From: Nitrospirota bacterium
GTDB taxonomy: Bacteria; Nitrospirota; JACRHJ01
Reading direction: 5' to 3'
DNA length: 64,000 bases
Assembly: GCA_963733375.1 (NCBI GenBank)
Contig: CAVTDB010000003.1
Span: 96,001-160,000 of the forward strand
Below the pieces are notes generated by a model. It did not search any database and had not been told where the DNA came from. It worked only from the letters and a program-made list of their open reading frames with translations. Shown here piece by piece: positions 6,601-62,942 of this stretch. The position numbers and the translations under genes were made by a program. How positions within the stretch are numbered: the first letter of the stretch is position 1; every line of letters starts with the position of its first letter.

Positions 6601-9354
6601 CAAGATCGCATCCAGACTGTAAAACGCCTCATAAGGCAGACAGGCGAGCGTAAATGCAGCCTGGGCAATGCGCATGCCGGTAGAACGCCCCGCGGCAGAG
6701 AGGTGCTGACCAAGAAGCACATCTCCCGGCTTCCGAAGAAGATCAAGGATAGAGGGAATCAGAGAAGGGAGCAGGATGATCCCTAAAACCGACAAGGTCC
6801 AGAAAAGCGGCATCGCCAGGACAGTCCAGCCAAGCAGCAGAAGGAGAGTCAACGCCACTGGCACGAGACTGCGCCGAAGGTTGTCCAGAAGCTTCCAGCG
6901 GGACAGCATCGAGAGCGGGTTCTTTTGAAAGCGGGAAAGGGCTGCCCGGGACGCCGGGCAGCAGCCACCTTACAAGCTGCCAGTCCCCGCGAATCCAACG
7001 ATGCCGGCGGCTCACGTCCGCGCTGTAGCCGGACGGATATTCCTCGTACACCATAACATCGCTCTGAAGCCCCGCGCGCGCGTAACATCCTTCCAGCAGG
7101 TCGTGGCTGAGTATACGGTTCTCGGGGAAGCGTCCATCCAGCGCCAGCTCGAATGCGTCGACGTCATAGATGCCCTTGCCTATGAACGACCCTTCCTGGA
7201 ACAGGTCCTGGTAAACATCCGAGACAACACGCGTATAGGGATCGATTCCCGGCTCGCTCCCGAACATGCGCGCATACCTCGAACGGTTCGTGCCGGGCAG
7301 GCTGACGGCCACGCGCGGCTGAAGGATGCCATATCCCTCGCAGACGCGCTGCTTGTCCTGGTCGTACCGCGCGCGGTTCAGGGGGTGCGCCATCGCACCC
7401 ACAAGCTGCCAGGCCGAGTCGCGCGGCAGCTGCGTGTCAGTGTCAAGGGTGATCACATACTTAACGCTTGATAATACCGCCGTGTCGCCTACTATGAGTG
7501 AAAAGCGTTCTTTTGCGACGCCATGTTCACCGGCGCGCAGTAAGGCGTTTAAGTCCGAAAGCTTGCCGCGCTTACGCTCGTATCCCATCCAAATACGGTC
7601 CTGGGGATTCCATCGGCGCGGGCGATGGAAAAGGAAGAACGCGTCGCCCTTTGAATTCCCGTATTTTTCATTCAGTTCTTCGATTCTCTGACGGGCCAGC
7701 AGCACAAGAGCTTCGTCCTCGGGCAGCGTTTCCTCGGCTGCGTCCCGAAAATCAGTCAGCAGGCCGAAGTGCAGGTTGTCGTCACGATTTGCCAGGAACC
7801 TGACTTCCAGCGCCTCGACCAGGTCCTCGATGTTCTGAGCGCTGATGAGCATGGTCGGGACAACCGTCAAGGTACGCGACTGTGGCGGTATGCCTTTGGA
7901 GAAGTCCATCCGGGGCAGCGGATGCGGTGCCGCGAGCAAAGTGGCCAACCAGTTCACCAGGGCCACGGCCAGATGACTTGCGCACAGAAGCGAGAGGATG
8001 CCCGTCAGCCCGAGCGCCCAGCCGTATAGCCCGCCGGCATGCGCCTTGGATAACATGAACCACGTGGGTACCGCTGTAATCAGCACGATGGCGCCTATAT
8101 ACAGCAGCAAGGGAAACCGTGAGGCCGATTTCCGAAGGGCCTCAAAGACGGATAAGCGTACTTCCGCCAGTTGCTCAAGCTGTTGACGCCCCTTGTCTAT
8201 CAGGTAATAGCCGACATGTACCGCATTTTCATGCGCAAGCCTGATCGCTTCGGCCGCAACTTCGCTCTCCGATAGCCGGCTCTTCTTAGCCGTTTTCTCC
8301 ACGGCGTGGCGGTAACGGTCGCGCGTAACAAAATCCATCTTGCCGTAAACGCCGCCTGTGTCCTCCCGCAGGGTCTGTTCGACAATGCTCATCGTCTCGA
8401 CGAACTCGCGCCAGTCCATTGCGCCAAGGAAGCGGAGGCTGCCTATACTGTTACTCATCGAGACCTGGTCGGCGGCCTGCTGCTGGTTCTCCGACTGCAC
8501 CAGTTGTTTGATCGTCAGGCCGGACTCGGACAGTTGCTGCTCAATCCAGGTAAGCGGCAATGCGAGGGCGGGGCCCTGTCCCTGGAGCCGGCGCGTGAGT
8601 TCCGCAACAAACGAACTCACCATCGGCGGGCCGGACCGCGCCATGTCGGCAATCACAAGGATCAGGCTCTTCGGGTCCTTCTCCGCGGTTTGGGTCAGCA
8701 GGTCAGCCCAGTAATCGGCGCTGTTCCGGTCGAGCCTGTCAGTGGCGATCCGGACCGCGACTCGCCGGAGGTTCTCGATCAGCGCCAGGCGCAGCATGAT
8801 GGGGATTGCCCACAATTCGCCTAATTTCAGGCTGGTTACTCGTCTGATAGGCCTTTACAAAACCGATGAGGCTCTCCGGGTCTACCCGCCCGTCTCCATG
8901 TGAAATAGTTTCCAACGCAATGTCATATACGCGAGGGAGACCGGCTGAAGGACCATCTTGCAGGCGAGGCAGTTCCCGGCTGTAACCTTTCGGCAGATGC
9001 CTTCTGGCTGTTCGGACCTGCTCCTCTATCAGGTAGAAATTGTCGAGCAGCCATTCCCCCGCAGGTGTGATCCTGCGGTCTGTCTTGACAGCCTCGGTCA
9101 GCAGGTTGCGGGTTTCCAACAGCACGCTTTCATTCTCAGCCAGGCGCGTCAGCAGCTGCTCCGGGGCATGGCCCTGGGCTCAGCCTGTGCGAGTTCGCGA
9201 GCGTCTTGCCGTGCTGCTCCATCTGATAGGCGCTGAACAACTCCGACCGAAGCGGCTGCTCGTCGCTTGCACGTTTTTGCGTTAAGATATTTTTGCTGAG
9301 GCTCGCACCCAGATGAGACAGGCGCCCGAGAATAGTTTTGCTACTCTTCTTCAC
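670..9354 (-). CDS. ndvB: Cyclic beta-1,2-glucan synthase (GT84 + glucoamylase-like + GH94 phosphorylase domains), split by ~8 frameshifts
   Basis: Colinear ORF pieces with WLLDNFYLIEEQ, WMGYERKRGKL, ILSHDLLEG, RTSPTNMGL, SWSGSMFEYLMP, YYQSGGAFGFRDQLQD, GSGDWNDGMN, PGVRENGGQYTH, GGWTWYTGSAGW. Confidence 0.92.
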
Positions 9355-36663: not shown

Positions 36664-37140
36664 TTGCTTTTGGGGGAATGCCCTGAATGGTTAAGGGAGA
36701 TAGTCACCTTCGCAATCTATACCGGGATGAGACGTAACGAGATACTATCCCTTAGATGGCCCCAGGTGGACTTAGAGCGGCAGGCGATAACGCTCCTTAT
36801 AACCAAGAATAAGGAAAAGCGCACCGTGCCAATAAATGAAAAGGTTCTGACCCTTTTGAGGGAAAAGGTCTCATCGCGGAAAAATTCTGGTTACGTTTTC
36901 CCTTCGGAGGCGGGCACGATGATAGAGGGGCACAATTTGAGCCGTGCATATAGGCTGGCAAGGGAAAAGGCAGGGCTTAACGATGTCCGTTTCCACGATC
37001 TCCGCCATACTGCGGGCAGCCGGATGGTTCAAGCTGGTGTTGACCTCTATTCAGTGAGTCTGATCCTGGGCCATAAAACCCTAGCTGTTACAAAGCGGTA
37101 TGCTCACCACAATGTTGAGAGTCTGCGCCGTGGCTGTTGA
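36664..37140 (+). pseudogene. Tyrosine integrase catalytic domain, N-terminally truncated
   Basis: TGMRRNE, FHDLRHT, LGH, RYAH; no core-binding domain upstream. Confidence 0.85.
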
Positions 37141-47100: not shown

Positions 47101-48991
47101 TTAATAATCTGCCATCATTTCGTAAATAGGTTCCCACACACTAGCTAAATGTTTTAATTCTGTATTAGAGTCGTTACGTAGTACATCTATAATATCCTCG
47201 CGCGTCAGACGTTTGTAAAGAAAAGACTCAACAGCAAGGTTTTTTCGTATTGTAGCGAAAAAATCCTGGAACTCACTTGTCATACCGATTGAAATAACGC
47301 TTAACGCCGTTAAAACTTGTTCGCTAATATCTGAAGACTCTCGGTAAGCAGTTTGAATAATAGCATAGTGTTCAGGTCTTCCTATCCGCGCTAATGCAAG
47401 GGAAGCATGGCCTCTATTTAGACTCTCATTACTAGAAATGGCATTTATTAATTCGTTCATGAAAAATGTATCTTTTCTCAATCCGATGGCGCGATAAACC
47501 CAGCATTTCTCACTAAGTGAAGAGCTAAGGAGCATACTAGCTATACTACGGAACTCGTCATTATTTTCGATATAATGCACTGAAAACGCTAAAGGTAATA
47601 AATATCTACTACGAGAAAGTGAGTTTACCGCTTTTTCACCACCAATGTTCCCTAGAGCGTAGGCCGAAGCATCAACCACATCTGGTTCTTCTTTTTCATT
47701 AAAAAGACGCTCACTAAGGAGTGGGACTGCTCGTGAAAGTCTCATTTGGCCTAATGCGCGTACTGCTAGTAGGCGAAGATAGGCCTTATCAGAATTAAGC
47801 CAACGAGAATATCAATAAATCAGAATGTCTTGCTTTACAATGTATCAGTTCGTTATTAACAGTATCTATTTTTTGATAATTAGAGAGAGCCGCTTTAAAA
47901 TTAATCGCAAAATGTAATCCCATTTCCAACTTATCAAAGGCATCTGAAATTCTATGTTTGTCACATTCGAGTACAAATATCTTTGATAGAGCCTTAAGAG
48001 CGAATATACAATATTTTCCAAAATCATATTCGCTGGTATAATATCCTATAATTGGATAGTTTTTTCCACGAAGAACATCTAGGATAGCAAAACCCCACTC
48101 GCTTGCACCTAAATATCCTAATGCCTCTATGCAGACACGACCTAAATCTGGGTCAGAAGTCTTTTGTAGTGTTTCCGCGATGTTACTTGCACAATACGGC
48201 TTATGCACAACATCTAAACAATCAGCCATGAAAATTGCTTCATACCAATTTTCGCTCGCGCTCATTATGATTTCCAATATTAATGGAGCAGCGTCCTTAG
48301 GGAATCTCTTGAGCACATTACGAACGATGATCTGATTAATCAGCCTTAAGTTTGTTTTTTTTATTTGGGCAATTATTGTGTTAATATCAATATTTTCAGA
48401 TGATATTAATGTTTCAGTAGCTGGCACACTAACTAAGGGATCGGGATTAAAAATATCATCAAACAGGGCAGCGAAATCGGATTTAGGAAATAGATTTGCA
48501 TGATTTGCTAGAGAACTAGCTGAGCGGACATCGCTAATCGCTCTGCGCAACTCTTCAAGTAAATTGTTATAAACCGCGGCTTGCTTTGCTTTACTAGCAT
48601 AGTCGCCTAATGGTTTTTCCTTGGGAAAATGTTGGGTTTGGCTCAGCCATGGCAGGTTCTTCCAGTCGCAAGCATACAGAATCACAGGGAATAAACGAAG
48701 CCCAGCTTTTCTTCGTAGTTCGAGGAAAGAGGCTACTTCCTCTTCTTGGCAATATGGTGAAACTAGAAAATCATTACTAATTAACAAAACAGCTATTTGA
48801 CTATTTTCAATGTTTTTCTTTATTTCTTCATCCCAAAGTTTACCGGTAGCGATTCTTTCATCATCCCAAAATTCTACTTCCTCTTTTACGAGAATTTTAA
48901 GATGATCAAGTAGCTGGTTCTTTTTGCGACGATCTTTGTGGCTATAGCTAATAAAAATCCTTAACATTTTAAATTGGTCCTCAATTACCAT
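47101..48991 (-). CDS. TIR domain + HEAT-repeat protein, frameshift near 47800
   Basis: IFISYSHKD, FWDDERI..G..W, LLISNDFLVSPYCQEEE; ALGYLGA, ALGNIGG, LALARIG HEAT motifs. Confidence 0.85.
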
Positions 48992-49159: not shown

Positions 49160-52100
49160 TTATATTCCCAAATTTTCATTTTGGGCCTGGCTTTCGGCCT
49201 TGTCAACATTAATCAGGCGCTTCAATGTGTCCTTCTTAGGATGCTGACGGTTCTCCTTGATCCAGCTCAAAACCATCCTCCGCAATGTTGGTCTAGAATT
49301 CTGAGCAGTCCATAAATCTAAGACTATTTCTGACCATTCGTGGTATTTTGAATTTAAAGCCAAAAAATTAATTCCCCAGCGTAAAAGATTCTCGTCATTA
49401 GAATCAACTGCCCAAACCGCACGCCAAACGGGCAAGACTGCGTCATCTTCTTTAAGATTCGAATATATCCATTCCTTCGCATGTCTCACCAGTTTCGAAT
49501 GATTTTCTACATCAAGGTCCCAAAGGGCAAGCCAAATCTTTGGCCATGAAGAACGGGTGAAGAAGCCATGTTGCATCCACCGCCGGCCGAGTTTCAATAG
49601 TTCGGAATCCGACTTTCGAGCCCGTACCATTGCGTTCCACACAAGCCCCCAGCCGGGTGAACTTGAATCCACGCCCGTGACCCATACCTTTCCTATGCGC
49701 ATCAATCCTTCGTCTGGACCGATCTCATCAAAAATATCCTTCCAGATAAACGGAAGCTGCTTTATCCACCCCGCTTTTTCAATTGCATTAATAGCAAAAC
49801 ACGCAAGTCGCGGTCGTTCAATATCGGCATCCCAAGCCTGCCTCCATAAGAAAGTCCAGTTATCATTTTCTTCAATGGGGGCTGTCTCAATCCGATTAAT
49901 CAGTGCTTCCTCTTCCGTTGGACTAGACTCCGCCAAATAGGCAAAACCCCGCTTACGCCCTGCTTCCATTATGTCATCGGGCATTTTCCCTGTGCCTGCC
50001 AACCTCGACCAAACGTCGAGCCAATTATTGTCGAAAATCATATAGAAACGGAGGTACCGTTCGGTCGTTGCCAACAGATCGGTATCCCAGCAATCCCCTT
50101 CGGACAAACGTTTCCAGAGTTGTATCCATTGCATATCCCCCGATGCAACCTTATAAGAACAAGACGCAGCGTTATCCAGCCATTCCAGTCCAAGCTGAAA
50201 TAGCTGCCTATCTCGGGGGAAATACGTGAAGAGCACAGTCCAAACGTAGCCCCAGCCAGGGCGTTGCGTAATCGAACTTGCCAGCCAGGAACGGGCTTCA
50301 TTTTCCAGATTTTGATCTCCCGGTGTTCTATTCCATAGTGTCCGCCACACATAGGGCCAATGTTTGTCTTCCAGTCTAGCCCTTTTTAGCCAAACAAACC
50401 CCTTCTGTTTTAATTGTTCGTCAAAGGGAGACGTAGCGTAAATTACTTGCCAAATTTGACTCCATCCCCTGTGCAGGATGGGAACTCGGTCAAGCCAAGT
50501 TCGTCCAATAATTATGAGTCCGTTATCGCCGGGGCTTGCTGTATGAAGTTCCATCCAGACGTAACTCCATCCACCATGAAATGGTGGCGCAACAGAGAGC
50601 CAATTTAATCCGATTCTGTCAATTCTCCCGTCGTTCTTGCAAAACTTTCTTAACTGCATCCATATGGTGTGCCAGCCTGCTTGGGATGCCGGTGCGTTTT
50701 CTATCCAATTAATTGCCTGTTCCAGCAGGACAGAATCTCCTCGCTTCTTGTTCCACAGCGTAATCCACACGGCTGCCCAACTTTTGTTCTCTAAGGCTGC
50801 GATCTTTAACCAGCTCTGACCCCGGCTTATTAATTCCTCATCCGCATCGGAACTTTCTGCAAGAGCTTTCCATATATACCCCCACGAGTCATTTTTAGCT
50901 GTTATTTCGTTAAGCAATTTGAAACCTAAATCCTTCAAACCGATGTCGGCTGGATTGCTCTTAAATAAAGGCCCCCAAATAAAATTAAAATTCACCTGCA
51001 CGATTTTTACATGCCCAAGCCACTCACGCGCCATTGTTTGTAATACCGAATTGCCAGGATCTGCTTCCCATAGCTTAGGCCAAATGTACCCCCACCCGAT
51101 GTGATCTGGTTTAGCTATTTCAAGCCATCTGCGGCCTTGTTCCGCAAGAACGCAATCGCCTACGTTCACTTCCCATAGTGAAAGCCAGATAACCCCCCAA
51201 AAATGTTCGAATTGGAGAACGTTCTGTTGCAGCCACTGGATTCCTAGCCTCTCCAGATCTGGATCCTTAGGGTCCACCTGCCAAAGATAACGCCAAATCA
51301 ATGTCCAAGCCTGATGCCCAGCAGGTACGTTGTTTATCCAATTGCGACCCATTTGTTCTAATTCGGAATTTCCTGGATGTTGTACCCACAGCGCTACCCA
51401 TAGGTAAGTCCAAGATCCATTTGTAACTGGCTGTTCCGCTAGCCATCTTCTGCCAATTGCCTCAAGGTCGCTGTCGCCTGGCTTCCACGCCCATAAAGCT
51501 GTCCAAACAAGTCCCCATGCAGGGTGCTCTCTTGGGCCGCCCTTTAGCCATCGGCGTCCGCTTGTTTCTAGTCCCTGCTCGCCGGGATTACCATTCCAGG
51601 ATTGACGCCAAGTTAAGCCCCATTTACCAAGTTCCTCACTTGTTTGTTCATCAATACCGTCATCTTCCGACATACAGTAAGTAGGCTCAACTGTTCTAAA
51701 AAGCTCATTTATCGGAATATCCGCATTAATGGAGACCAATTCAACAAGTTCATCATCTATACCCCTCCAACATTCAATAAGCGCACGGCTCAACTGCTTT
51801 CGCAAACCAGGCTCCATCTTGCTCAAACGCTCAATAAAAGCAATCATTAATGGACGTGATTCCTTGTCAAGAGATTGAAGAGCGTTTTGGGCGTCACGAC
51901 GTATCCACCTGTTTGAGTCGAGGAGAGAATTAATAACCCCCTCCAAAGCGTCCCGCCCCGGAATTTGACTAAGAGCTGTCAATGCAATACGTCTCATCCA
52001 ATGTAGGTTGCTCTTTTGAAGAAGTAATAACTGGGATACTATCATATTGCCAAGTTGAACCATTCCTGATAGGGCAGCAGGGCAGTTTTGGCTACCACCT

Positions 52101-53968
52101 TGAATGAGGCTGATAAACCGGTTTAGCAATTGTGCCAGTATTCGGCAATCGATGGAGTATTCGTTTGGCGACTGTGAAATTGCAGCTGCCGCCAGAAAAG
52201 GATCGCGCTCAACAATATCCAGAAGCATGGAAGAAGGATTTCCCAAGTTTAGTAGGGTGTATATAACTTCATCATAGGGTCTTAAAATGCGTCTTCCGTT
52301 TTCAATTAGCGGTTCTCGAATTAAGGCACCTAATTGTTCCGAATGCGTAAGGTAATACTCTGCTGCGAAATATTCAAGTAATAGAGGATGGGCGAACTTC
52401 AGAAAACGACCCTCTTTCACTAATACGATAAAATCAGCACCACGGCCAAGTCTGACAAGAGCATTACCGTCAATCCCATTTGGTAAATATCTTTCTATGT
52501 ATTTCGTTTCAACCATCTGAGACGTTCTATTATGGAGCATGGCAACTGCTAATGCTCCGAAACCATCAATAGCAGTAGATAACTGATGGTACCTCATTTC
52601 TTTACGTAATTGTTTTTGTTCCCGGTCGTATAATTCAGAAGCAAAAGATCGGATAAGTTCTCCCCGAGTTGGCGGTATTCGTTCATCTTTATTATAAATA
52701 AGACACATCACTTGCAATAAAAAAGGATTCCGGGCCATATGGACCAGGTCGCGAGGCGCAGCATCAAGTCGGCACTCCCATCCAATTTCATGAAGAAGCC
52801 CCTTGTTTCGATCGCCTAGTCGCTCTAGCACGAACTTTTCGACAGCTTTGTCATTCATAGGGAGGACATTTACTATCGGCAAACCTAGATGTCCAGTTTC
52901 CTCCCGTGAAGTTATGACTACAGAGGTTCCTGGGTGCCTGGAAAGCCATACTGCGATTGATTCAATCTGGATAGCGGCATATTCTGAATCCATTTGACTT
53001 AATCCATCAAGCAATAGCAACAACGATTCAGGAAACACAGGAGTGCCTATTTGATTAAGGGTCTCATTATGGATCAAGGTGGCAAGATCTATGACGTTAT
53101 CTGGCCATGCTTGAAGTTCAATAAAAAGCGGTATTGATGTTGTGGTACCAGCCAAATATCGATGAGCGGTGTCATTTAAAATGTGCTTTAGGACTGCTGT
53201 TTTCCCGCATCCTGGCCTGCCTACGATGACAAATTGTCGGTGGAATGCCACCGCGTTCTCTACTTGTAACAGTGAGATGGCCTTTGGAATTTGTGGCGCA
53301 ATCTGTTCCATGGTATTAACGTATGACGGCCACAAAAAGTCCGAACAGTCATCGCGGTCCTTAATCTCTGTTATGTGAGTACCTCCACTGAGATGAACAT
53401 AGTACTTTTCGAACTTATTGTTCGTGTACGTAGATTTAATTTTTTCTAAATATTTTTGAACAGGGGATTCCGGTTGCGATGGTTTTTTGACGTTTTGCCT
53501 ATCATTCTTCCACTTGAGAATGCTATCAGATATTAAGCCAAGGAGCTCATCTTTATTATTAAATGTACGAGCTCGAAGATCAAGAAGCCTCATCCTAAAA
53601 TCGTCGATCAGTACTCCACGTTCATTATCTCCAGTAGAATGATCGGTAAGACTCCGGGGCCATAAAGGATCGTCGAGCACAAACATATGCCGTTCAATTC
53701 CTTTATTCCCGGCCTCTTCATATTCCAATTCTGTGATAGATTTGGTTTCACCTTTAAAAATATGTCCGTAACGATAAGCGATAATACCTATAAATAGGTC
53801 GCACTCGCGTATATCCCCCAGGCATTTCTCAAGATGCCTCGTTTCCTCAGCACAATAATATTCCATCGCAACGTCATCGAGATTTAATCTTTTTAACTTA
53901 TCCCGCACGGCGCTACGGATATTTTTGAGGTCATCGAACGTTGCGGAAACATAAACCTTTTCAGGCAC
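49160..53968 (-). CDS. NLR-like protein: DUF4062 + NACHT NTPase + HEAT + Trp-rich repeats (1602 aa)
   Basis: KVYVSATFDDL..IGIIAYRYG..SITELEY; GRPGCGKT; LLLLDGL; VITSR; NPFLL; FAHPLLLEYFAA. Confidence 0.9.
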   Translation of the reverse strand: MPEKVYVSATFDDLKNIRSAVRDKLKRLNLDDVAMEYYCAEETRHLEKCLGDIRECDLFIGIIAYRYGHIFKGETKSITELEYEEAGNKGIERHMFVLDDPLWPRSLTDHSTGDNERGVLIDDFRMRLLDLRARTFNNKDELLGLISDSILKWKNDRQNVKKPSQPESPVQKYLEKIKSTYTNNKFEKYYVHLSGGTHITEIKDRDDCSDFLWPSYVNTMEQIAPQIPKAISLLQVENAVAFHRQFVIVGRPGCGKTAVLKHILNDTAHRYLAGTTTSIPLFIELQAWPDNVIDLATLIHNETLNQIGTPVFPESLLLLLDGLSQMDSEYAAIQIESIAVWLSRHPGTSVVITSREETGHLGLPIVNVLPMNDKAVEKFVLERLGDRNKGLLHEIGWECRLDAAPRDLVHMARNPFLLQVMCLIYNKDERIPPTRGELIRSFASELYDREQKQLRKEMRYHQLSTAIDGFGALAVAMLHNRTSQMVETKYIERYLPNGIDGNALVRLGRGADFIVLVKEGRFLKFAHPLLLEYFAAEYYLTHSEQLGALIREPLIENGRRILRPYDEVIYTLLNLGNPSSMLLDIVERDPFLAAAAISQSPNEYSIDCRILAQLLNRFISLIQGGSQNCPAALSGMVQLGNMIVSQLLLLQKSNLHWMRRIALTALSQIPGRDALEGVINSLLDSNRWIRRDAQNALQSLDKESRPLMIAFIERLSKMEPGLRKQLSRALIECWRGIDDELVELVSINADIPINELFRTVEPTYCMSEDDGIDEQTSEELGKWGLTWRQSWNGNPGEQGLETSGRRWLKGGPREHPAWGLVWTALWAWKPGDSDLEAIGRRWLAEQPVTNGSWTYLWVALWVQHPGNSELEQMGRNWINNVPAGHQAWTLIWRYLWQVDPKDPDLERLGIQWLQQNVLQFEHFWGVIWLSLWEVNVGDCVLAEQGRRWLEIAKPDHIGWGYIWPKLWEADPGNSVLQTMAREWLGHVKIVQVNFNFIWGPLFKSNPADIGLKDLGFKLLNEITAKNDSWGYIWKALAESSDADEELISRGQSWLKIAALENKSWAAVWITLWNKKRGDSVLLEQAINWIENAPASQAGWHTIWMQLRKFCKNDGRIDRIGLNWLSVAPPFHGGWSYVWMELHTASPGDNGLIIIGRTWLDRVPILHRGWSQIWQVIYATSPFDEQLKQKGFVWLKRARLEDKHWPYVWRTLWNRTPGDQNLENEARSWLASSITQRPGWGYVWTVLFTYFPRDRQLFQLGLEWLDNAASCSYKVASGDMQWIQLWKRLSEGDCWDTDLLATTERYLRFYMIFDNNWLDVWSRLAGTGKMPDDIMEAGRKRGFAYLAESSPTEEEALINRIETAPIEENDNWTFLWRQAWDADIERPRLACFAINAIEKAGWIKQLPFIWKDIFDEIGPDEGLMRIGKVWVTGVDSSSPGWGLVWNAMVRARKSDSELLKLGRRWMQHGFFTRSSWPKIWLALWDLDVENHSKLVRHAKEWIYSNLKEDDAVLPVWRAVWAVDSNDENLLRWGINFLALNSKYHEWSEIVLDLWTAQNSRPTLRRMVLSWIKENRQHPKKDTLKRLINVDKAESQAQNENLGI

Positions 53969-54064
53969 TTTGAAAAGCTCCTTTCAGGACCTTACAAGTT
54001 ATAGATTGGAGAAGACGTTCGAGTGCTCCTACTGCCTTCTCTTTTGGGTTCCATGATCGCCTTG

Positions 54065-54226
54065 TGTTGGCCGGCGTGCAATTTTGACCCACCATCGGGC
54101 ATCCTGTTTGACCCAGGCTTAATTTAAATTATAATATTAATAACGACCAGTTGTGACCTTAGAAGGTGGGGCAATGTTGGACGCCGATTACCTTCAAAGT
54201 GGGTCATTATTGCATGCCGATCAACA
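54065..54226 (-). mobile_element. IS21-like MITE, copy 6
   Basis: Reverse orientation; core CCTTCTAAGGTCACAACTGG as in copy 4. Confidence 0.85.
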
Positions 54227-54289
54227 AGCCTATGAGCGTAATAGCGAATTGGCCGTGTGCCATTTTTTTAAAGCCGCTGGCAACTATTA

Positions 54290-55873
54290 TTAAACTTGCG
54301 CACCTGCATACCTCAAAATTGCCAGAATTTCTGATTTAACTTTTATTGGTATTTCTGCAGCTTGCGAGATTTCTACATATTTGAAAGTTGTAACATCGAA
54401 TGGTACTTTGTCGTCGGCGTTTACAGGTTCAAAAAGTAAAATAAGGCGATTCTGTTCATGATGCTTTAGGGCGTACCCTATCTCAACATATACATTGGGC
54501 CGGTGACCTGTAAGGTCGCATATGATTATATCCGATGAGGCAATCGCCTCGTACATTTTTTTGTGAATAGGAAAAGTCCCGCCTTCCTCAGTTCCCATAT
54601 CCTCCAAATCGAGTTTTATACGATTCTCTCTCTCAATAGCAGCAAGTGTTTCTTTGAGTTGCTCAAGCCTTCTTTCTGCTCTATTATAAGCTCCATTCGG
54701 CGCATCAACAGGAGGATACCATCGTGCTAGGAAGACTTTCTTCGGTATTTTAAGTTGTGCGGCCTTGAATGTTTCAAGAAGCTGCTGAGCGGGCGATACA
54801 GGGCTGAGGAGGTTCGTTATTCCTTGCGAGCCGAGCCAGTTTCCTATGCGATTAAGATAATCGACCGACCACCTTATTTTAGTTTCATGGTCTCCACCGC
54901 TTGCCTCTCGCCAGACTCGTGCCGCTAGCTCTAAAAAAGAATACGTTTTACAGAGTGATGGATGTTCCGCCGTGAGGCGAGTGAGTATATCGGAAAGTCC
55001 TGCAAATAGATCCTCAGAAAATATCGTCATCTTTTCTCGTGACTCAGTGATACTCTCATCCAGCTTTATTAGATTGCTGGCAGCTTCCGACAAAGCTGTT
55101 AACGGACGTTCTCCAAACCGTTCTCGGGCAGGTTGAGGTAAATGTTGCAGACGCTCAGACAGTAGTCTGGTTAAATGTAATTCGGGGCTATATGCAAACT
55201 CTCTGTCAGGGGTCATGGAGTGAGTCGGGTCTTGACCAAGTAGAAGTCTCAAGCCATGTTCTGATTCAAGCGGTAACGCTTTACTGTTGATAGTATGGAA
55301 GATCAGGGACTCAGCAAAATCATCTGCATCGTTATTAGGCGGCTCAAGTAATACTAAGCAAAACGGCGCAAGGTATTTGTTTGGTAATGACATGTCTTCT
55401 TGTAGGTCTTCAGCCTTTGCAAGTCGGTGATTGCCGTCAATTCTTCTAAATAATTTTTCAGCCTTGACTTGATCCAGTTGGCTGCGCCTAACCCAAACAC
55501 GTAGTATTCTAAGATTCCTGCTTGCGTATCGACGATAGATTCCTATAGGACCTTCATCGACAGTTTTTACACCAACAGTTTCATCTTCAATCGTAATAGG
55601 TTCCACATGGCAGCGCACTGAGAGTATAACTTCTGGAATGAAACGACTATCGCTTTTCTCAAGGTACTTTCTTATATCATCTGCGTGCTTCGGATCTAGC
55701 TCTCTCTGATGTCCGGTGACGCGTTGGGGCTGGCCTCCATCTGTCATTAAGTAAGGAACGGATATAGCTGCCAAGTCTCTTAAATCGGCAAAGCCACGTA
55801 TGATGCGGAATATGCCTAACACACCTTCGGCAAAGTAGCCTTCGAATGATATGTATTGTGTTGCCAACGTCAC
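54290..55873 (-). CDS. DGQHR/DndB-like (ParB fold) domain fused to a nucleoside 2-deoxyribosyltransferase/TIR-like domain
   Basis: GHQRELD..IRKYL..FIPEVIL..RIDGNHRL..IFHTINSKA; KVFLAR..SDIIICDLTGHRPNVYVEIGYA..VPFDV. Confidence 0.75.
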   Translation of the reverse strand: MTLATQYISFEGYFAEGVLGIFRIIRGFADLRDLAAISVPYLMTDGGQPQRVTGHQRELDPKHADDIRKYLEKSDSRFIPEVILSVRCHVEPITIEDETVGVKTVDEGPIGIYRRYASRNLRILRVWVRRSQLDQVKAEKLFRRIDGNHRLAKAEDLQEDMSLPNKYLAPFCLVLLEPPNNDADDFAESLIFHTINSKALPLESEHGLRLLLGQDPTHSMTPDREFAYSPELHLTRLLSERLQHLPQPARERFGERPLTALSEAASNLIKLDESITESREKMTIFSEDLFAGLSDILTRLTAEHPSLCKTYSFLELAARVWREASGGDHETKIRWSVDYLNRIGNWLGSQGITNLLSPVSPAQQLLETFKAAQLKIPKKVFLARWYPPVDAPNGAYNRAERRLEQLKETLAAIERENRIKLDLEDMGTEEGGTFPIHKKMYEAIASSDIIICDLTGHRPNVYVEIGYALKHHEQNRLILLFEPVNADDKVPFDVTTFKYVEISQAAEIPIKVKSEILAILRYAGAQV

Positions 55874-57240
55874 GTCTCCTTAACAGGTAACTTTCCAAGT
55901 ATCATTGTCTCTATTTCCTTCTCGATATTTCGCGCCAACAGTTTAGCTGCGTCTTGCTCACGGGCAATCTCTTTTCTGCCCTCGTCAACGCGGCGCATAA
56001 TCTTTCGTTGCTCTTCGACATCCTTTGGCAGTGGTATGCTCAAACTTCGGATTTCTTCGGTGTTGATGTTCGCCTGTCCGATAATTTGTCTGCTCATAGC
56101 ATCTATCTGTTGACGACCAACGGTGGAGTTTAAAACGAATGCAATAAAATCTGGGTCGGCCTTATTAACGTTGGCACGTAGTCGAATCAAGTAAGATGCA
56201 AATACATAATCCCCTACTTCGTGAAACACCGCACATTTTCCAACAAGCTCTTTGCTGTTTGTTCTATTTATTAAGATATCGCCTTCTCTTAAAAGCAAGT
56301 TCACGGTCTCACGTTCGGATAGTTTAATATGCTTCAAGTCTTTTAGATTCAGGGTTCCGCTTACAATGTTGTTCATGCGTATAACTGGCGTACCCTCCCC
56401 GTTGATGTTCGCCTTATCGCTCGTGCCGTATTGAACCATGTCGAGGATAGAGCCAAGCGACACAACGGGGAATCGTCCCTTGGAGATATCGCAGCCTGTT
56501 TGCACTTGCTGGTTAAAGTCAACACCCCAGCGCGGAAAGTCTTTCCACCATACCGATAGCGACTTGGGCAACTGCGCCTGCATTGGTGGCTTTAACCCAA
56601 GGTCTTTATAGAACCTGGCGTCAATGTCCGCTTTTATTTGCTCAACCCTTTTATTGGCGGCTTCTATTTTCCCCTTTGCTTTGTGCCAGTGGTCAACGAT
56701 GGCTTGCTGGACAGAAGGCGGGGGGTAGGGTACTTGAACGGATAATAGGCGCTCCTCGCTTATTTCGCCTTTGCCTATACCACCGGTTTCAATATTAAAT
56801 TGATTCGTGCAATATTGTGAACGCAAAGCCGCCCATAGGAATTCAGTATTAACTTTTGAGGTATCTGGTATTAGCGAACGAAAATGAATCGTGATACCTA
56901 AGTCTGGGCCATCGGGTACTATCCCTATAGCTCTTTTTCTTGCATTTATTTTTGAGACGACAATATCACCCGGAACTGCACGATATTGAACCATTTTTGT
57001 AGCTGTACGCTTACCGGAGAAAACCTTCCCTTCATCAAACGAAATACGATCTAAGAAATTCACTTTCTCGTGTTTTTCCTGTGGCACAATCTCGAAGCGA
57101 ATATTACATACTTGCCCTAACGGTATGGTCGGCCAATGGCACTTATTACTTAATGAGAGGCGAAGTGAGGCAACATCCCAATAAACAAAATTTTGAAATG
57201 TAACCGCAAAAGCTTTTGTATCTATGCTATCCGTTATCAT
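55870..57240 (-). CDS. hsdS: Restriction-modification specificity (S) subunit, two TRDs
   Basis: VPYPPPSVQQAIV; QYGTS..PVIRMNNI..GDILINRTNS..VGK; QANIN..IPLP..EEQ; TAATG overlap with the upstream gene. Confidence 0.9.
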   Translation of the reverse strand: MITDSIDTKAFAVTFQNFVYWDVASLRLSLSNKCHWPTIPLGQVCNIRFEIVPQEKHEKVNFLDRISFDEGKVFSGKRTATKMVQYRAVPGDIVVSKINARKRAIGIVPDGPDLGITIHFRSLIPDTSKVNTEFLWAALRSQYCTNQFNIETGGIGKGEISEERLLSVQVPYPPPSVQQAIVDHWHKAKGKIEAANKRVEQIKADIDARFYKDLGLKPPMQAQLPKSLSVWWKDFPRWGVDFNQQVQTGCDISKGRFPVVSLGSILDMVQYGTSDKANINGEGTPVIRMNNIVSGTLNLKDLKHIKLSERETVNLLLREGDILINRTNSKELVGKCAVFHEVGDYVFASYLIRLRANVNKADPDFIAFVLNSTVGRQQIDAMSRQIIGQANINTEEIRSLSIPLPKDVEEQRKIMRRVDEGRKEIAREQDAAKLLARNIEKEIETMILGKLPVKET

Positions 57241-59454
57241 TAGTCTGTCCCTAAAATCAAAAAGGACTCCGGGTTAGCAAGGAACTCACCGTAAAGCTCC
57301 AGACACGTTTTCTCAACGCCCGAAGGCATATTGTTGTTAGGATAAAGTTCGTTCTGGTCGGCTTCACCCGTAGCCGTAATGCCGACCTTCTCCGCGTCGT
57401 ACAGGAAAATCATGTACGGGAACCTCTCCTTCAGGAGCGCCCGGGCTTTGGCTATGATAAGGGCTTCCATCCTCTTCTCATATTCCTTAAGCTCCTTCTG
57501 AGACGCTTTGCGAGACTCGGTATCTCTGGCGTCCTTTGCCGCCTCAATCTCTTTATTTAAACGCCCCCGCTCAGCTTCCATTTCCTTACTGTACTTGCCG
57601 CGTATCTCTTCTTCCGCTACGGTTTTCTTGGACTCGAAATCGGCCTTTTCACTTTCGGTGAATTTCTGCATGAATAATAACGACGCCTTCACGCTGGCCC
57701 CGGATGAGAAGAACGTCTCCTGGGGTAGGCTGACGACGGCTCGGATATAGGCGCGATCCTCACAAAATTCTCGGACGTAAGCAAGAGAAGGGTTATTGAA
57801 GACGCCTTCGGGCAGGACTATCCCCATTCGTCCACCAGGCTTAAGGAGCGAAAGGCAACGCTCGATGAAAAGTATTTCCGTCTTTATATTGCTTGTCGTC
57901 GTCTTTGGCAGTTCGAAAAGCGCGGCTATAGGCTTACCCTTGACAGCCTGCACCCTCGCCTGGGCCTCTTCATAAAGCTCTCCGAACTCAGAGAAGTATC
58001 TATTTGCCATTTCATTTGGAACCTGTATGTCTTCTTCTCTTATAATGTCGGAAGGCTCGACACTTGCGCCAAAGGGCGGGTTGGTCAGTATGATGTCAAA
58101 ACGTCCTTCAAATATTCCGTTCACATTCAGGAAGCCGTCGTGATGATGCACGCCGCCATGCCCGTCGCCATGCATTATCATATTCATCTTGCTCGTCCTA
58201 GCCATTCGGTCGTTGGCGTCCGTGCCATATATGGCTTTATTCGCAAGCTTCCAAAGACGGGAACCAGTTAATGACGGGTCAATCGTCTTTTGTATCTCTT
58301 CGTATTTTTGCCGAAGCGCTTCCGCCTTCTTCTCGTCAGAGAGCTTCTTGTTCTCTAATTGGGCTTTGTACTCCTGGTAAGCTTTGTCCGCGTCTGCAAG
58401 GATCTTCTGCCGTACAACCTCAAAGAAGCGGATAAGGAAGCCGCCAGAACCGCTTGCCGGGTCACATATAACATCTCCTTCCTCTGGCTCCACCATATGA
58501 ACCATAAATTCAACTATGGTTCGAGGGGTAAAAAACTGGCCGATTTCGCCACGGAATGTGCGGCCCAGAAATTTCTCAAAGGCGATACCCTTAATGTCTT
58601 CGCTGGTTTCAGAAAGGTTGTAGCGTTCGAGCCTTCTAACTATTTCATGTCCGGTTGCGGGCTTCAGGTTGATGTGTTCATCCGCATCAAAGATTTTATC
58701 GTTCTTGAAGAATGCCTTAGTGTCTTGGAAAAGTCCGTCCAACGGGTTATCGCCGAACTGCTCATTAAGAACCACGGTGGTGAAGAGGTTCTTGCGCTTA
58801 CGCTTTGCGCGCAGTTCCCTTTCAACAAAGACCTTGACGAACAGTATCTTGGCTATTTCATCGAATGCTGCGGCGGGGTCTTTTTTCTCGCGGTTACGGA
58901 TTACGTTATGGCAGTCCTGGAGGAGCTTTGCAAACTCGTCCTCTTTGAAGATTTTCAATTTGGATAGGAGTTCGTCTATCTCCTTGTCGCTGGCGTCGGC
59001 ATGGGGGATGTTGTCGATCTCTTCCAGCGACTTCGGCATCTTGTCATGCAAGACGCGCCAATACTTGGTTTCCCTGTTGTTGTGGGTTACAAGAAAACGC
59101 GCGTTAGAATAGCGGGCATATGCGTCACCCTGCCGGTAATCCTTATCTGTTATGGTTACGTTATCGGATTTGCACTCCACTACAATCAGAGGACTCTCGT
59201 TTTCGGTTTTGTCCTGAGCGGTACGCCAGATGACAAAATCGGCCCGCGCGTGTGCCGATCCCCTACCTGTTACCTCCTCCTCTTCAGCAATTTGGTTCTA
59301 AGGAAAAACCATATTCTTCGATGAGCACGAGAAGGTATTCTTGACGTACACGTTCTTCCGGCGTCTCGACGAGCCATCTTTGCCGCTTATGGCTCCAAAT
59401 CTTGCCGCCCTTAGTTTGTATTTCCAAAAATGTCTTGGCTTGTTTTTTTTCCAT
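57240..59454 (-). CDS. Fused HsdR_N-type PD-(D/E)xK nuclease + N6-adenine methyltransferase (type IIB/IIG-like), frameshift near 59295
   Basis: TPEERVRQ..RADFVIW..IVVECK; GQFFTPR; DPASGSGGFL; LTNPPFG; GIVLPEG. Confidence 0.9.
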
Positions 59455-59553
59455 GGAGGTTCCCTGCCAACTCAATAATAAAGGATAGCAGTACAGACGG
59501 TCTTCCTTGTGAGTCAACCCTGCCTATAACCGCTATCCTGCTGAATACGCCTT

Positions 59554-62500
59554 TCAGTTGCCTGATAGATTTGATTTCCGCAGTTCCAAATATCTCAGGT
59601 CGGAATGTAAGGTTTCACTTTTGATTCCTTGTAGAGAAGTCAAGTCAATCTCGTTTAATTCTTTTAGATATTTCTTTTCTAGATCATTGTCGCCAAGTAT
59701 TCGCCAAAGAAATGAGCTATGTCGAAATATTCTTAATAATTGGACTAATTGATTTTCATGTTTCATTAACTTCCAAATAACATTATGACATCTATTAAAT
59801 AAATCTTGGAGCCACTGATAATATAGATGAGTGTATGCTAATGATAATAAATGTCTATCTTCAGAATTAATTTCATTAGTTCTTATTTCTTCTATTAAAA
59901 TCTCTGCTTTAGTGATGATAGCTATAATGTGATTATAATCGTCTTCACGTGTCTGAAGAATTTGCTCAAGAAATCTAAGCTTCTCTTCCGTATTATCTGA
60001 TTTTCTCATTAAATTCAGGAGGGTGTTATTGCTAAGAACAGTGAATCCTTTCTTGCGAGCCTTCTGCTCCAATTGCAACAATTCCTTTTTTGTATCTGCG
60101 CTGGTTTCTTTGCATTCCAATATTATTTCTTTCGCATGCATATAAGCGGCGGATTCTTTTTCTTTCAGTTCCAAAACTTGTTCCGCAAACGATATTGCAG
60201 AAGTTCGTTCGATATTTTTAAGTGCAAGTGCAATATTCAAATACGCTGAAGCTTTCATTTCCTTGTTTAATAATTTTTCGCTATGCCCAAGGACTGATTG
60301 AAGGACTTGCACCGCTTCTTTTCTTTTATGCGTCATTCGAAGAGATTTCCCGTATATAAGGGCTATATCAGTAAACTCTTTTTTTAAATTCTTACCTTCA
60401 ATTAAATGATATATTTCAGCTGAAGCTTTACAGGCATCTTTGAAGCGATCATGATCAAATAATTGACCGCAATAATAAATGGCTAAACTGGCAGCCTGTT
60501 TAGCCGCTAGCTCATCTTTTTTTTGAAGTGCCGCCCAAATTAGATGATAAGCTACCGCATGTTCATTACCAGGGCCAATTGGCATCGCAAACTTCATTCC
60601 TAATTGAGCCATTTTCGTAAGTTTGATTTTACCTTCTCGCCAGTTTGGACCAAAAAGCAAATCTGTTGCTGTATATGTAATATCTGAATATTCTTCTTCT
60701 GTAATTAATGAGCTTACATAATCACGAACCTGCCTTGGTATACGAAGCAATTTAAATGCCTCAGATAAGGTAGCAGAGCCTTCTCTAATATAAAGGTTTC
60801 TGGGCGGGCGATAGAAGAGGCACTATTTCTAATAGCGAAAGCTCGGATAATTCCATAACGTTCCCTGGAAAAAAAGGTTCGGTAGGATAAAAACGCTTAA
60901 TCGTAGCCAATGTTTCTCCATTTGAGAGAACAGTTAGCAGTTTCAAGAGACGATAGCTCCGACGAGAATATCTGTCATTCGATTGAGCGAGGGAAGATAC
61001 GGCTTGTACCAAGGCCTTCGGGACAGGTTCTGCGTCAATTCGCTGTTCTTGCCCCGTTTCAAGCTCTATATCGAGCAATTCGCTGAAGGATATAATTTTA
61101 AGTGATTTTATTATTCGATCCAGATGCATTGGTAAGCCGCCGGAGAGTCTGGAAAGTTGTTCGACACTCTCAGCGTCTTGAAGTTCCATATTAGCTTCAG
61201 GGTGAACAGCCATATAATTACGGACTTCCGGTAAATCCAGCGGTTTTAATTCTACAAAGTCCAAAATTTGTTTAGTGATTTGTCTTGAAACAAGAATAAT
61301 ATAAATGCCCGGACAATAATCTAGGATTGAACTTATGAGTTGTTCAATAACGTTTCCTTTGCCTTCTTCAAAGGTAGATTCTGATAGTTCTGGAGTTATA
61401 TTGTCTAATATTAGTATTGAACAGGGTATGGCCGTATTTATGGCAACAAATTCTTGTAAAGGCAATCGGAATTGATCATCAAAGGCAGATAATAGTTGCT
61501 CAGCAGTGGTTATATCTTCGCATTGGAGGTTATATATATCTAAATAGGAAGATTGACCTTTCAGCCGTTCGAAAACACATCCTATAAATGTTTCTTTACC
61601 TAGACCCCAATCTGAAATTAGCCAAGCATACCGATTTCTACGAAGTAAGGTCTCAAATTGCGACTGGTCTTCCAAGCGGATTGCTCTATGTTGAGGTCCA
61701 ATATTTACTTTCAGTCGTGGTATTCCTTGAAGCTTTGATTTTGCTTTTTCAACGTCAGGGGATTCTTCACTCAATAAAGTTTTAAAACTTTCATTTAATG
61801 CGATTTCTTTTTCTGAGAGCCTCATTTGTAGGAGCTTCTAAGTGTAAAGATAACGATTCAGTTTTTTGTATTTCAGCTTCTGGGGGTTTTTTCGGTTCAA
61901 ACGTCCATACGATTGAATCTGCTTCGTTGAGGTCAAATTGTTGATCTGGACCAATTCGAAGATGGCCCGCATATGTTTGTACTGATATTCTTGGCCAAAG
62001 CTGCAACCTTCCTTCTGTTTCTGTTTTGTTTATTTCTATCCGGCAAGCGGTATACCCATGTATACGTTTTACCCTTTCTCGATATGTTTTCAGTCCAAAT
62101 AAAGAAGGTCCTTGCAAATATCTTCGAATCTCTGCACCACCTTCACTTATGCTCGCGGTGAAAGGTTCATGCATGTGCCCATATAGATGGGCAAAAAACC
62201 TTCCTGGCGGAGAAATTTCTCCTTTAAGACGAGCTTGTGCATTGGGATGCAGCCACTCCGGGCCATGATGAGATATCAATAAAGTAATATCTTTTTCTTT
62301 GCACCAGCTGACCGGATCACCGGAACAGGCATTGTGAATCTGGTTTTCATGTATATCGAGTTGACCTTTGTAATCATCCTTAGTGAGCTGCAAAAAGGCT
62401 GTATTTATACCAATAATCCCAAAACTTGCCCCGCCTATTTCAAGAACGATGGAAAAGTCTCCGGGGAGTAAACCATATTTTATTTCTTTAGGGTGGGGAA

Positions 62501-62942
62501 GAGATAAAGTTTGCAGCCATATTGTGTAATTATAAAAGCATTCATTTATGGTTGCTCTATATTCATTTTTACTAGAGCCCCAAAATTGTTTTCGTAAATC
62601 GGCGTCCTCATGCCAGTGTCTGAAAGCTTTGACCGCAGCATTCTCAGTTGAAGGGCGCAATAAATCATGGTTTCCTGGTACAGTTATCAGCGGCGGCCAG
62701 CTGCCCAAACTTCGGAAATGGGCCCAAATCTTATCCAAGGTTTCTGATAGTTTTTCGAATTCTTCCTTTTTCCCAGAATATGTTAAGTCGCCAGAAAATA
62801 TTACAGCATTCCACGGACCAGTTTGATCATGTAATTTCGATAGGTTTTTAAAAAATTCTTCGCGGTAGGTTGGCCAAAGCCATTCTTGATTTTCAATTCC
62901 AAAGTGCAGATCGGAGAAATGTAGCCAGTTAAAAGTAGCCAT
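59554..62942 (-). CDS. Metallophosphoesterase + degenerate P-loop NTPase + TPR-like helical domain (STAND/Avs-like), two frameshifts
   Basis: WLHFSDLHFG, SGDL, PGNHD, SHH, GHMH; SDWGLGKETF, ILILDN, SGGLPM; helical C-terminus. Confidence 0.78.

Follow-up and report, generated by a model that had tools for sequence, protein, structure and literature searches.

A stretch of 64,000 nucleotides from a Nitrospirota bacterium (assembly GCA_963733375.1, contig CAVTDB010000003.1, positions 96,001 to 160,000; hereafter the window) carries on its minus strand a three-gene operon in which a restriction-modification (RM) enzyme is followed by a gene of a quite different kind. We call the genes M (gene 1, a nuclease-methyltransferase), S (gene 2, a specificity subunit) and G3 (the third gene and its 527-aa protein). 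By sequence comparison, M and S have a BsaXI-like (Type IIB-like) RM architecture, with nuclease and methyltransferase in one chain plus a separate S, and G3 appears to join a DGQHR-type ParB-like domain, through a helical region, to an N-glycosidase-type domain resembling nucleoside 2-deoxyribosyltransferases (NDT) and TIR domains, with its acidic residue pair intact. The linkage of G3 to the RM genes is obligate, G3 and M diverge together, and the three-gene unit is apparently a widespread, conserved and hitherto undescribed variant of RM-linked defence. The interpretation that we prefer, and to which we give about an even chance, is that M-S-G3 is a conserved, mobile defence operon in which a BsaXI-like RM enzyme would be joined to a nucleoside triphosphate (NTP)-gated N-glycosidase effector causing abortive infection. 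The parts of the operon are listed here by position in the window.

57240..59454, minus strand: gene 1 (M, the RM subunit), PD-(D/E)xK HSDR_N_2-like nuclease plus N6-adenine methyltransferase, from Pfam, PADLOC and PDB matches; frame broken in the window
59291..59297, minus strand: site of the gene-1 frameshift, from three-frame translation and comparison with homologues
59169..59177, minus strand: E-C-K of the gene-1 PD-(D/E)xK motif, from an alignment of 24 M sequences
58071..58082, minus strand: NPPF catalytic motif of the N6-adenine methyltransferase, from translation; invariant in the M alignment
55870..57240, minus strand: gene 2, specificity (S) subunit with two target-recognition halves, from Pfam, PADLOC and PDB matches
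54290..55873, minus strand: gene 3 (G3), 527 aa, DGNHR(ParB-like)-helical-NDT/TIR-like, GTG start, from the reading frame and its translation
55229..55873, minus strand: G3 residues 1-215, DGQHR-type ParB-like domain, from NCBIfam TIGR03187
55703-55708, minus strand: G3 QR (residues 56-57), from translation
55424-55438, minus strand: G3 DGNHR (residues 146-150), from translation
55286-55300, minus strand: G3 FHTIN (residues 192-196), from translation
54749..55228, minus strand: G3 residues 216-375, helical middle region, from the conservation profile; without family match
54293..54748, minus strand: G3 residues 376-527, NDT/TIR-like N-glycosidase-type domain, from PADLOC, Pfam and PDB profiles
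54515-54517, minus strand: Asp453 of G3 DLTG (residues 453-456), followed by PNVYVEIGYA (459-468) and PFD (491-493), from translation
54482-54484, minus strand: G3 Glu464, aligned to the Glu of NDT/DNPH1

The three minus-strand open reading frames (ORFs), taken from the ORF list and its translations, are consecutive: 57240..59180 (646 aa), 55870..57240 (456 aa) and 54290..55873 (527 aa). The stop codon of M and the start codon of S have one base in common (TAATG, 57242-57238), the stop of S and the start of G3 have four (GTGA, 55873-55870), and an AAGGAG lies 5 nt 5' of the G3 GTG start. An earlier reading of this DNA from its letters (the sequence-only reading) had described the genes as joined through these overlaps, as the ORF coordinates bear out, and the motifs it quoted from the third protein (QR, DGNHR, F..IN, DLT, PNVYxExGYA and PFD) are all found in G3. 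Its remark that HsdR helicase, dnd and dpd genes are missing agrees with a Pfam scan of 40 window ORFs, none of which matched a helicase/HsdR, dnd or dpd family. Within 53000-60800 no RNA family of Rfam is matched; the repeats seen are just short, chance-like pairs, and promoter-like and terminator-like sites number 9 and 3 where 8.4 and 6.9 would be expected.

Taken singly, the window G3 matches nothing in Pfam below an E-value of 0.01, and at a laxer threshold it picks up DndB (0.022), Nuc_deoxyrib_tr (0.096) and CAP12-PCTIR_TIR (0.18). Residues 30-217 match NCBIfam TIGR03187, the DGQHR model, at 3.5e-9 (36.8 bits, with a cut-off of 58.85), and residues 427-501 match the PADLOC CBASS 'Effector TIR' model PDLC00733 at 9.1e-10. 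A scan of 1.84 billion representatives with a close-family profile yielded 1462 proteins at E ≤0.001, and a wide alignment was built from the window G3 and 48 near-full-length proteins among 150 listed matches, at 22-60% identity (n = 49). Invariant throughout the 49 sequences are R26, G27, S38, Q56, R57, P80, E81, D146-G-N-H-R150 and F192, and further along W346, F381, N460, V461, E464 and G466; N196 and D453 are kept in at least 90%. Every one of the 49 relatives is matched by TIGR03187 at E ≤0.01 (best 3e-15), and all except one by PDLC00733 (48/49). The sequence-only reading was thus right to place a DGQHR-type domain at the N-terminus, in the window as well as across diverse relatives. 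Pfam at E ≤0.01 recovers Nuc_deoxyrib_tr in 19 of the sequences (best 9.5e-9), DndB in 15, CAP12-PCTIR_TIR in 8 and GmrSD_N in 1, while the DGQHR_dnd_1 model is found in 16/49. Of the signature of the DGQHR domain, QR and FHTIN are invariant, and the pentapeptide reads DGNHR, with Asn for Gln, in 49/49.

The C-terminal domain is best seen with the wide family profile; the close-family profile found nothing meaningful among PDB sequences. With the wider one, the PDB matches are the NDT 2a0k (0.0012), DNPH1/Rcl (0.003-0.008), the CMP N-glycosidase MilB (0.012) and Cap12 (0.076). Glu464 aligns with the Glu of FEVG in 2a0k and of YELG in Rcl, and Asp453 with the Asp of IADLS, so that G3 has the feature of the NDT/DNPH1 superfamily, a Glu in ..ExG.. 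with a preceding Asp. We take this Glu/Asp pair to be the catalytic one in NDT and DNPH1 enzymes, with which the title and a passage of the reference on E98 agree. An NDT-type C-terminus that retains its Glu, as the sequence-only reading had described it, is accordingly upheld by both NDT/DNPH1 and TIR-like models.

Between the two domains, residues 216-375 match no Pfam, NCBIfam or PADLOC model, and across the wide family W346 is the sole invariant residue of this region. A HEPN-like Rx6H here (R322..H329) was considered and dropped, not being conserved in the wide family; nor does any ABC or HEPN model of the same three collections match G3. A search for longer fused forms of G3 found none, which is weak evidence. 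Compared by hhalign with its neighbours in the window, the G3 family shows no similarity to a canonical TIR_2 protein and a weak match (probability 18%) to a DUF4062 domain. The phage family phrog_3634 (function not assigned) matches G3 residues 436-505 (54359-54568) at 1.3e-9; phages therefore carry relatives of the C-terminal domain.

Gene 2 is an S subunit, as the sequence-only reading had it: Pfam Methylase_S matches in two stretches (3.3e-19), PADLOC Specificity_I PDLC03148 matches over positions 10-450 of 453 (2.8e-69), and the PDB sequences matched are EcoKI HsdS (7.5e-22) and S.BsaXI (4.8e-13). For gene 1, a profile of the M family finds RM.BsaXI (8w0p_A) as its top PDB match, at 1.6e-35 and in four collinear stretches that begin at the nuclease motif and reach the C-terminus, with Type I HsdM chains following at 1e-21 or weaker. 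PADLOC MTase_I PDLC03018 also matches gene 1 (7.8e-200), a label that denotes similarity only. The PDB entry for BsaXI names just 'RM.BsaXI' and 'S.BsaXI', and we take the enzyme to be of Type IIB. In the homologues of M, an N-terminal PD-(D/E)xK nuclease and a gamma-class N6-adenine methyltransferase stand in one polypeptide (the frame is broken in the window), S is a separate subunit, and the window holds no motor subunit. The HsdR translocase-nuclease which, with M2S, makes up a Type I enzyme is absent from the window and from the triad loci; no helicase or HsdR gene recurs across related loci, and none lies among the window ORFs. The missing HsdR that the sequence-only reading remarked on is no anomaly, since a BsaXI-like pair needs no HsdR motor and its absence is expected.

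In the window, gene 1 is interrupted. Reading from ATG 59454, 56 codons are followed by the stop TGA 59286-59284, and the methyltransferase frame lies in another phase, with its first start codon, GTG 59180, inside the nuclease motif. In 29/29 complete gene-1 homologues the N-terminal part and the body share a single frame, and in 28 homologues the run ..EYG(F/Y)..(E/D)QI.EE.. passes uninterrupted across the shift point; compared with the 29, the window thus has one base too many near 59291-59297 (GAACCAAA). Programmed frameshifting finds no counterpart among these 29 complete genes, none of which has the shift. Since other genes of the window are broken too, the frameshift may stem from an error of assembly, which is no less and no more likely than a real pseudogene. 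The nuclease-methyltransferase fusion of the sequence-only reading is therefore real in intact homologues, where both domains are joined, but it is not a single open frame in the window. In keeping with this, the truncated window ORF matches Pfam N6_Mtase (2e-36) and just the last half of HSDR_N_2 (8.1e-7), whereas the intact homologue at locus L021 matches the whole HSDR_N_2 model (1.4e-21) and then N6_Mtase. E2, C3 and K4 (the ExK triplet) and NPPF are invariant among 24 aligned M proteins, and the Asp of ARAD (..RADF..) upstream of ExK is kept in at least 90% of them; this Asp comes shortly after the shift, where the methyltransferase frame runs on. The motif aligns, weakly (7.4 bits), with RvDvlv..FiEvK of RM.BsaXI.

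The G3 family is compact and wide-ranging. Over its full length the window G3 can be aligned with 20 homologues, which are 64-70% identical to it. A word-indexed search found 779 proteins at E ≤0.001 among 8000 candidates scored, the best 120 of which are 510-545 aa long, 64-72% identical, and named 'hypothetical', 'DGQHR domain-containing' or, once, 'DUF4071'. Two distant clusters bear the name 'nucleoside 2-deoxyribosyltransferase', and for the homologue P0031 the clusters in the Atlas are unnamed, DndB-labelled or NDT-labelled. A scan of species-representative genomes gave 39 loci, one of them (L039) a spurious weak match. They fall in Thermodesulfobacteriota, Alpha-, Beta- and Gammaproteobacteria, Verrucomicrobiota, Planctomycetota, Synergistota and Nitrospirota, with one Peribacteria genome and one Methanomicrobiales archaeon besides; named carriers include Desulfobulbus rhabdoformis DSM 8777, Rhodobacteraceae HTCC2083, Pseudomonas, Zhongshania arctica and Metallumcola ferriviriculae. 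Since closely related copies occur in unrelated phyla, the three-gene unit appears to move horizontally. No G3 relative was matched in phage records or in E. coli genomes.

G3 and the RM genes are found together almost wherever there is room to look. A near-complete M lies upstream of G3 on the same strand in 29/31 loci (those with at least 4 kb upstream), the exceptions to the M-S-G3 order being L019, with a remnant of M, and L035, which is rearranged. The window S finds an S gene in 27 of these 29; at L038 there is an ORF the size of S that falls in the same cluster, and in L016 half an S is fused to M. Where 0.7-1.5 kb lies upstream, S directly precedes G3 in 4/4 loci. Gaps in 21 related loci are mostly -4 between M and S and mostly +1 between S and G3. 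The check put forward in the sequence-only reading, whether homologues sit consistently in RM operons, is answered by the 29/31 count. Pairwise identities of G3 and M across 22 operons (231 non-independent pairs) correlate at 0.91 (Pearson) and 0.90 (Spearman). S is tracked by neither (same pairs; Pearson 0.26 for G3-S and 0.23 for M-S, Spearman near zero). Maximum-likelihood trees of G3 and M (25 rows) agree in three major clades and most subclades. Judged by its G3 the window belongs inside clade A, and judged by its M it lies outside; an exchange of M and G3 modules was entertained and set aside, as an approximately unbiased (AU) test does not reject placing the window with clade A for M (p = 0.448).

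Defence genes are gathered in islands, and what flanks the triad differs between loci, so one might suppose that gene 3 is an unrelated chance neighbour of an RM system. Set against the M-S-G3 order in 29/31 loci with coupled starts, the co-divergence of G3 and M (r = 0.91) with congruent clades, and an M::G3 junction in a distant lineage described below, this is very improbable indeed.

Some variation around the triad was seen. A RadC-like JAB gene (232-256 aa; RadC 7.7e-38 plus UPF0758_N) directly precedes M in 10 loci, making a four-gene RadC/JAB-M-S-G3 unit in one subclade (L004, L006, L007, L009, L010, L012, L014, L015, L023 and L038); it is absent from the window. Fic genes lie near the triad in 5 loci, and YhcG, RhuM, DUF4145, DUF6880 and zeta-toxin-like genes elsewhere. 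At L014 (6953-7999) an inserted gene for a YhcG/DUF1016 PD-(D/E)xK nuclease separates S from G3, and at L016 (5094-7988) M is fused to half an S (964 aa), with G3 directly after. A 922-aa relative of M without G3 is found on Acidithiobacillus caldus pTcM1 (L042, 5695-8463).

The distant relatives extend the pairing. G3 relatives P0224 and P0163 match one plasmid gene, a 747-aa coding sequence of Leisingera thetidis annotated 'N-6 DNA methylase' (plasmid pBMJM1_1, L040, 5879-8122), which adjoins an integrase fragment and has no S gene. Its residues 51-335 resemble the M family from after the nuclease to just past NPPFG (hhalign 1.4e-37, 35% identity), and residues 363-745 resemble the G3 family (1.9e-58) from a point shortly ahead of DGNHR as far as the C-terminus, the first ~117 residues of G3 being missing; DGNHR, FHNIN, DLT and NV..E.GY are retained. 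This gene may be a functional fusion, or else what an in-frame deletion has left of an M-S-G3 operon; either way, by joining M to G3 it extends their pairing to a far more distant lineage. Plasmid p1 of Flammeovirga kamogawensis (L041, 5461-11125) carries the closest plasmid-borne relative of M (45.6% identity) in an operon of a helix-turn-helix regulator, an HSDR_N_2/N6_Mtase gene (770 aa), S and a 568-aa gene with an overlapping start after S. The last encodes an ABC-ATPase/OLD-TOPRIM protein like PtuA, mad3, AriA, Old and GajA, and since it stands in the position of G3, the slot after S evidently takes different effector-type genes.

G3 is damaged or lost in 5/38 loci: L019, L020 and L034 carry frameshifts in it, L035 has it rearranged, and in L038 just 41 residues of it are left. 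In three of these (L020, L034, L038) M is complete; the reverse case, a broken M with an intact G3, is seen in the window only. Small as the numbers are, the asymmetry resembles that of restriction genes versus methyltransferases. That G3 is lost in some loci where M-S persists would also suit a regulator or housekeeper of the RM system, which might limit methylation or restriction as DndB does, or clear or sense methylated deoxynucleotides from marked DNA. DndB is described as a negative regulator in passages of PMC3632139 and PMC10853773, DNPH1, among the PDB matches, is a 5-hydroxymethyl-dUMP N-hydrolase, an enzyme for modified deoxynucleoside monophosphates, and methylome-derived m6-dAMP serves as a danger signal in another system, according to a passage of PMC12871103. 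Such a role is nevertheless improbable, because the best model for the C-terminal domain is an abortive-infection effector (PDLC00733, 48/49), an OLD-like nuclease occupies the same slot in a related operon, the window neighbourhood is a defence island, and the switch motif and the catalytic Glu are both invariant, as in sensor-effector fusions.

How an RM operon with a G3 effector would work we infer as follows. M-S would methylate host sites and cut unmethylated DNA, with G3 as a second-layer effector held with or near the RM complex. The ParB-like domain, as an NTP-binding switch or a DNA sensor, would read the state of the complex or of the DNA through NTP binding. The trigger could be the engagement of foreign, unmethylated DNA by the RM complex or, as with PrrC, an anti-restriction protein that blocks the complex; the data favour neither of these putative triggers over the other. 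Once switched on, the C-terminal domain would cleave an N-glycosidic bond in a small molecule, most likely NAD+ and otherwise (deoxy)nucleotides, and the loss of NAD+ or nucleotides would stop growth of the infected cell (abortive infection). The sequence-only reading had supposed that the third gene might guard the RM complex, or sense nucleotide pools or modified DNA, and would then deplete nucleotides or make a signal. NAD+ is favoured because the strongest and most general model match is to a CBASS TIR-type effector, and (deoxy)nucleotides rank second because of the NDT/DNPH1 matches. Also in favour of an immune role are the neighbours in the window, which include a TIR protein, a DUF4062-NACHT fusion and a phosphoesterase similar to anti-phage models.

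A DNA-directed G3 has also to be weighed. Here M-S would guide G3 to its site, the DpdB-like NTPase domain would open the DNA, and the NDT-like domain would remove or swap a base, giving either restriction via abasic sites or a new sequence-specific base modification by an NDT-fold enzyme. The N-terminal domain does match DpdB models in a part of the family (16/49 with PADLOC, 14/49 with NCBIfam), and the operon provides a sequence-specific DNA-binding complex. DpdB, a ParB-like ATPase, assists DpdA in inserting a base into DNA (passage of PMC12839542), NDT enzymes catalyse transglycosylation (passage of PMC7308715), and a survey of HEPN proteins proposed that NDT toxin domains, as predicted abortive-infection toxins, attack the base-sugar bond of DNA (passage of PMC3710099). 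Yet the solved relatives that were matched (NDT, DNPH1, MilB and Cap12) all act on free nucleosides, nucleotides or NAD+, no recognisable DNA-binding module lies beside the C-terminal domain, and a conserved nuclease motif for restriction is already present in M. We therefore consider action on DNA unlikely.

Several observations tell against an abortive-infection effector gated by the RM enzyme, and they should be set out together. The DndB and NDT models that the sequence-only reading proposed as a check recover the family resemblance, but the window G3 stays below the curated cut-offs of TIGR03187 (36.8 vs 58.85), PF14072 (14.3 vs 29.1), PF05014 (13.3 vs 28.8) and PF10137 (12.3 vs 24.7); with every match below its family cut-off, G3 is to be placed in a separate DGNHR clade and not in DndB proper. 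The substrate is ambiguous by sequence, TIR-like models pointing to NAD+ and NDT/DNPH1 to nucleosides or nucleotides. A BsaXI-type RM+S pair is a complete restriction enzyme, and G3 is not needed for cutting. Unless the shift comes from faulty assembly, the frameshifted M of the window beside its intact G3 is not what one would expect if M-S kept a toxic G3 in check. Finally, no relatives of G3 were found on phages, and on plasmids just the Leisingera relic.

The surroundings of the operon in the window may be described briefly. Adjoining G3 is a 1602-aa DUF4062 + NACHT + repeat protein (49160..53968, minus strand), followed by a ThsB-like TIR protein (47795..48991, minus strand; PADLOC ThsB 6.8e-27) and a HEAT-repeat ORF (47101..47745, minus strand). 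DUF4062 is presented as a TIR-like NADase (Swarozyc) in passages of bioRxiv 10.64898/2026.05.01.722283, and the DUF4062-NACHT fusion of the window mirrors the eukaryotic TEP1/NWD layout given there. Upstream of gene 1, on the minus strand, lie a calcineurin-like phosphoesterase (61791..62942), which resembles the NCBIfam anti-phage models DS8 and DS9 and PADLOC PDC-S60, and two proteins of no family (60785..61825 and 59554..60750). Together the three may represent a candidate defence system in split form; neither the phosphoesterase nor its two companions recur in related G3 loci. Between the metabolic genes and the defence cluster are a PLD-like protein (30004-31128), an RCC1-repeat protein (37742-39244) and a truncated tyrosine-integrase ORF (36664-37140; 158 aa, model positions 22-170), a hint that an integrated island makes up the right part of the window; no tRNA gene was found in the window. 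Broken genes are seen elsewhere: a GH94 cyclic-glucan-synthase-like gene is split into at least 6 ORFs (670..8815), with Pfam domains cut at ORF ends, and two overlapping ORFs (22840-29026 region, minus strand) are the pieces of an S8 peptidase with MBG repeats. The pattern suggests assembly indel errors or widespread gene decay.

If the proposed function is true, RM, the oldest known innate defence, would be wired directly to metabolite-depletion immunity (NAD+ or nucleotides) via a non-nuclease effector, and the DGQHR/ParB fold would have a defined role, as the switch that couples the modification status of DNA to an enzymatic effector. It appears that more than one kind of third gene can follow the M-S chassis: here it is G3, and Flammeovirga and MADS have an OLD-like nuclease. 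This suggests a modular family of HsdR-less, methylation-based systems that defence finders have missed or called incomplete RM. Because the three-gene family is compact, highly conserved and present in named genomes, these ideas are directly testable.

It is instructive to compare M-S-G3 with the systems that it most resembles. Classical Type IIB systems such as BsaXI and BcgI have two genes, and enzymes of this type cut on both sides of their recognition site. The stretches that gene 1 shares with RM.BsaXI keep the same order, from the nuclease motif by way of the methyltransferase to the C-terminal DYPIFM..AE.VG, and there is likewise a separate S, related to S.BsaXI and EcoKI HsdS, and no motor subunit; the difference lies in the third, co-diverging gene present here in 29/31 loci. 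PrrC of the Type Ic system EcoprrI is alike in function only, as an NTPase and toxic enzyme inside an RM operon which acts as a back-up when a phage blocks restriction. There is no homology: PrrC joins an ABC-type ATPase to a HEPN anticodon nuclease and its host system includes HsdR, whereas G3 is ParB-like plus NDT/TIR-like, with no HsdR. GmrSD/BrxU and SspE (DUF262, DGQQR), which work with DNA-modification systems (passage of PMC3632139), share with G3 the arrangement of an N-terminal ParB-fold domain (QR, DGQxR, FxxxN) and a C-terminal effector; theirs is an HNH nuclease acting on DNA, that of G3 an N-glycosidase-type domain, and GmrSD_N is matched by 1/49 of the family. The DGQHR motif (QR, the DGQHR pentapeptide and FxxxN), and the fusion of a ParB-fold domain to a C-terminal effector, are defined in a passage of PMC4619093. 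ParB-like COG1479/DGQHR genes inside Type I loci have been proposed as cell-death modules (passage of PMC3632139). Papers on Synechocystis Type I systems were considered as a precedent and put aside, as they concern another kind of methyltransferase.

DndB and DpdB appear to belong to the same domain family as the G3 N-terminus. G3 differs from them in its scores (27.4 vs 450 and 11.3 vs 300 at the equivalog cut-offs), in having Asn for Gln and in its extra NDT/TIR-like domain; it is not DndB or DpdB proper, and no dnd or dpd genes occur in the window or in related loci. As the sequence-only reading had anticipated for the third gene, no defence model of PADLOC 2.0 or NCBIfam 20.0 covers G3. 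A full-text literature search, with subscription journals outside its scope, turned up in the passages that it covers no description of a DGQHR/ParB-like + NDT/TIR-like fusion or of the three-gene unit, and the words TIR and deoxyribosyltransferase are absent from the main text, as available, of a survey of ParB-fold fusions (bioRxiv 10.1101/2025.10.10.680097).

MADS is similar in its RM part, being HsdR-less with a related methyltransferase and S (MAD2 1.7e-78, MAD5 6.6e-16). It comprises eight genes, mad1-mad8, against the three here, and the scores of 264 for MAD2 and 58 for MAD5 stand against cut-offs of 720 and 400. The available passages on its composition (PMC13662399) describe effectors of other families, for example the OLD-like MAD3-MAD4, and mention no G3-like protein. 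The retron Ec86 NDT-like protein, CBASS Cap12, Pycsar TIR and DUF4062 (Swarozyc) appear to belong, with their conserved Glu, to the same effector superfamily as G3. Depletion of NAD+ or of adenine derivatives is reported in passages of bioRxiv 10.1101/2023.08.16.553469, for the retron Ec86 NDT-like effector, and of 10.64898/2026.05.01.722283. These NDT/TIR immune effectors differ from G3 in their sensors, which are retron msDNA, cyclic nucleotides or a phage portal, whereas the partner of the N-glycosidase-type domain of G3 is an RM enzyme together with a ParB-like domain.

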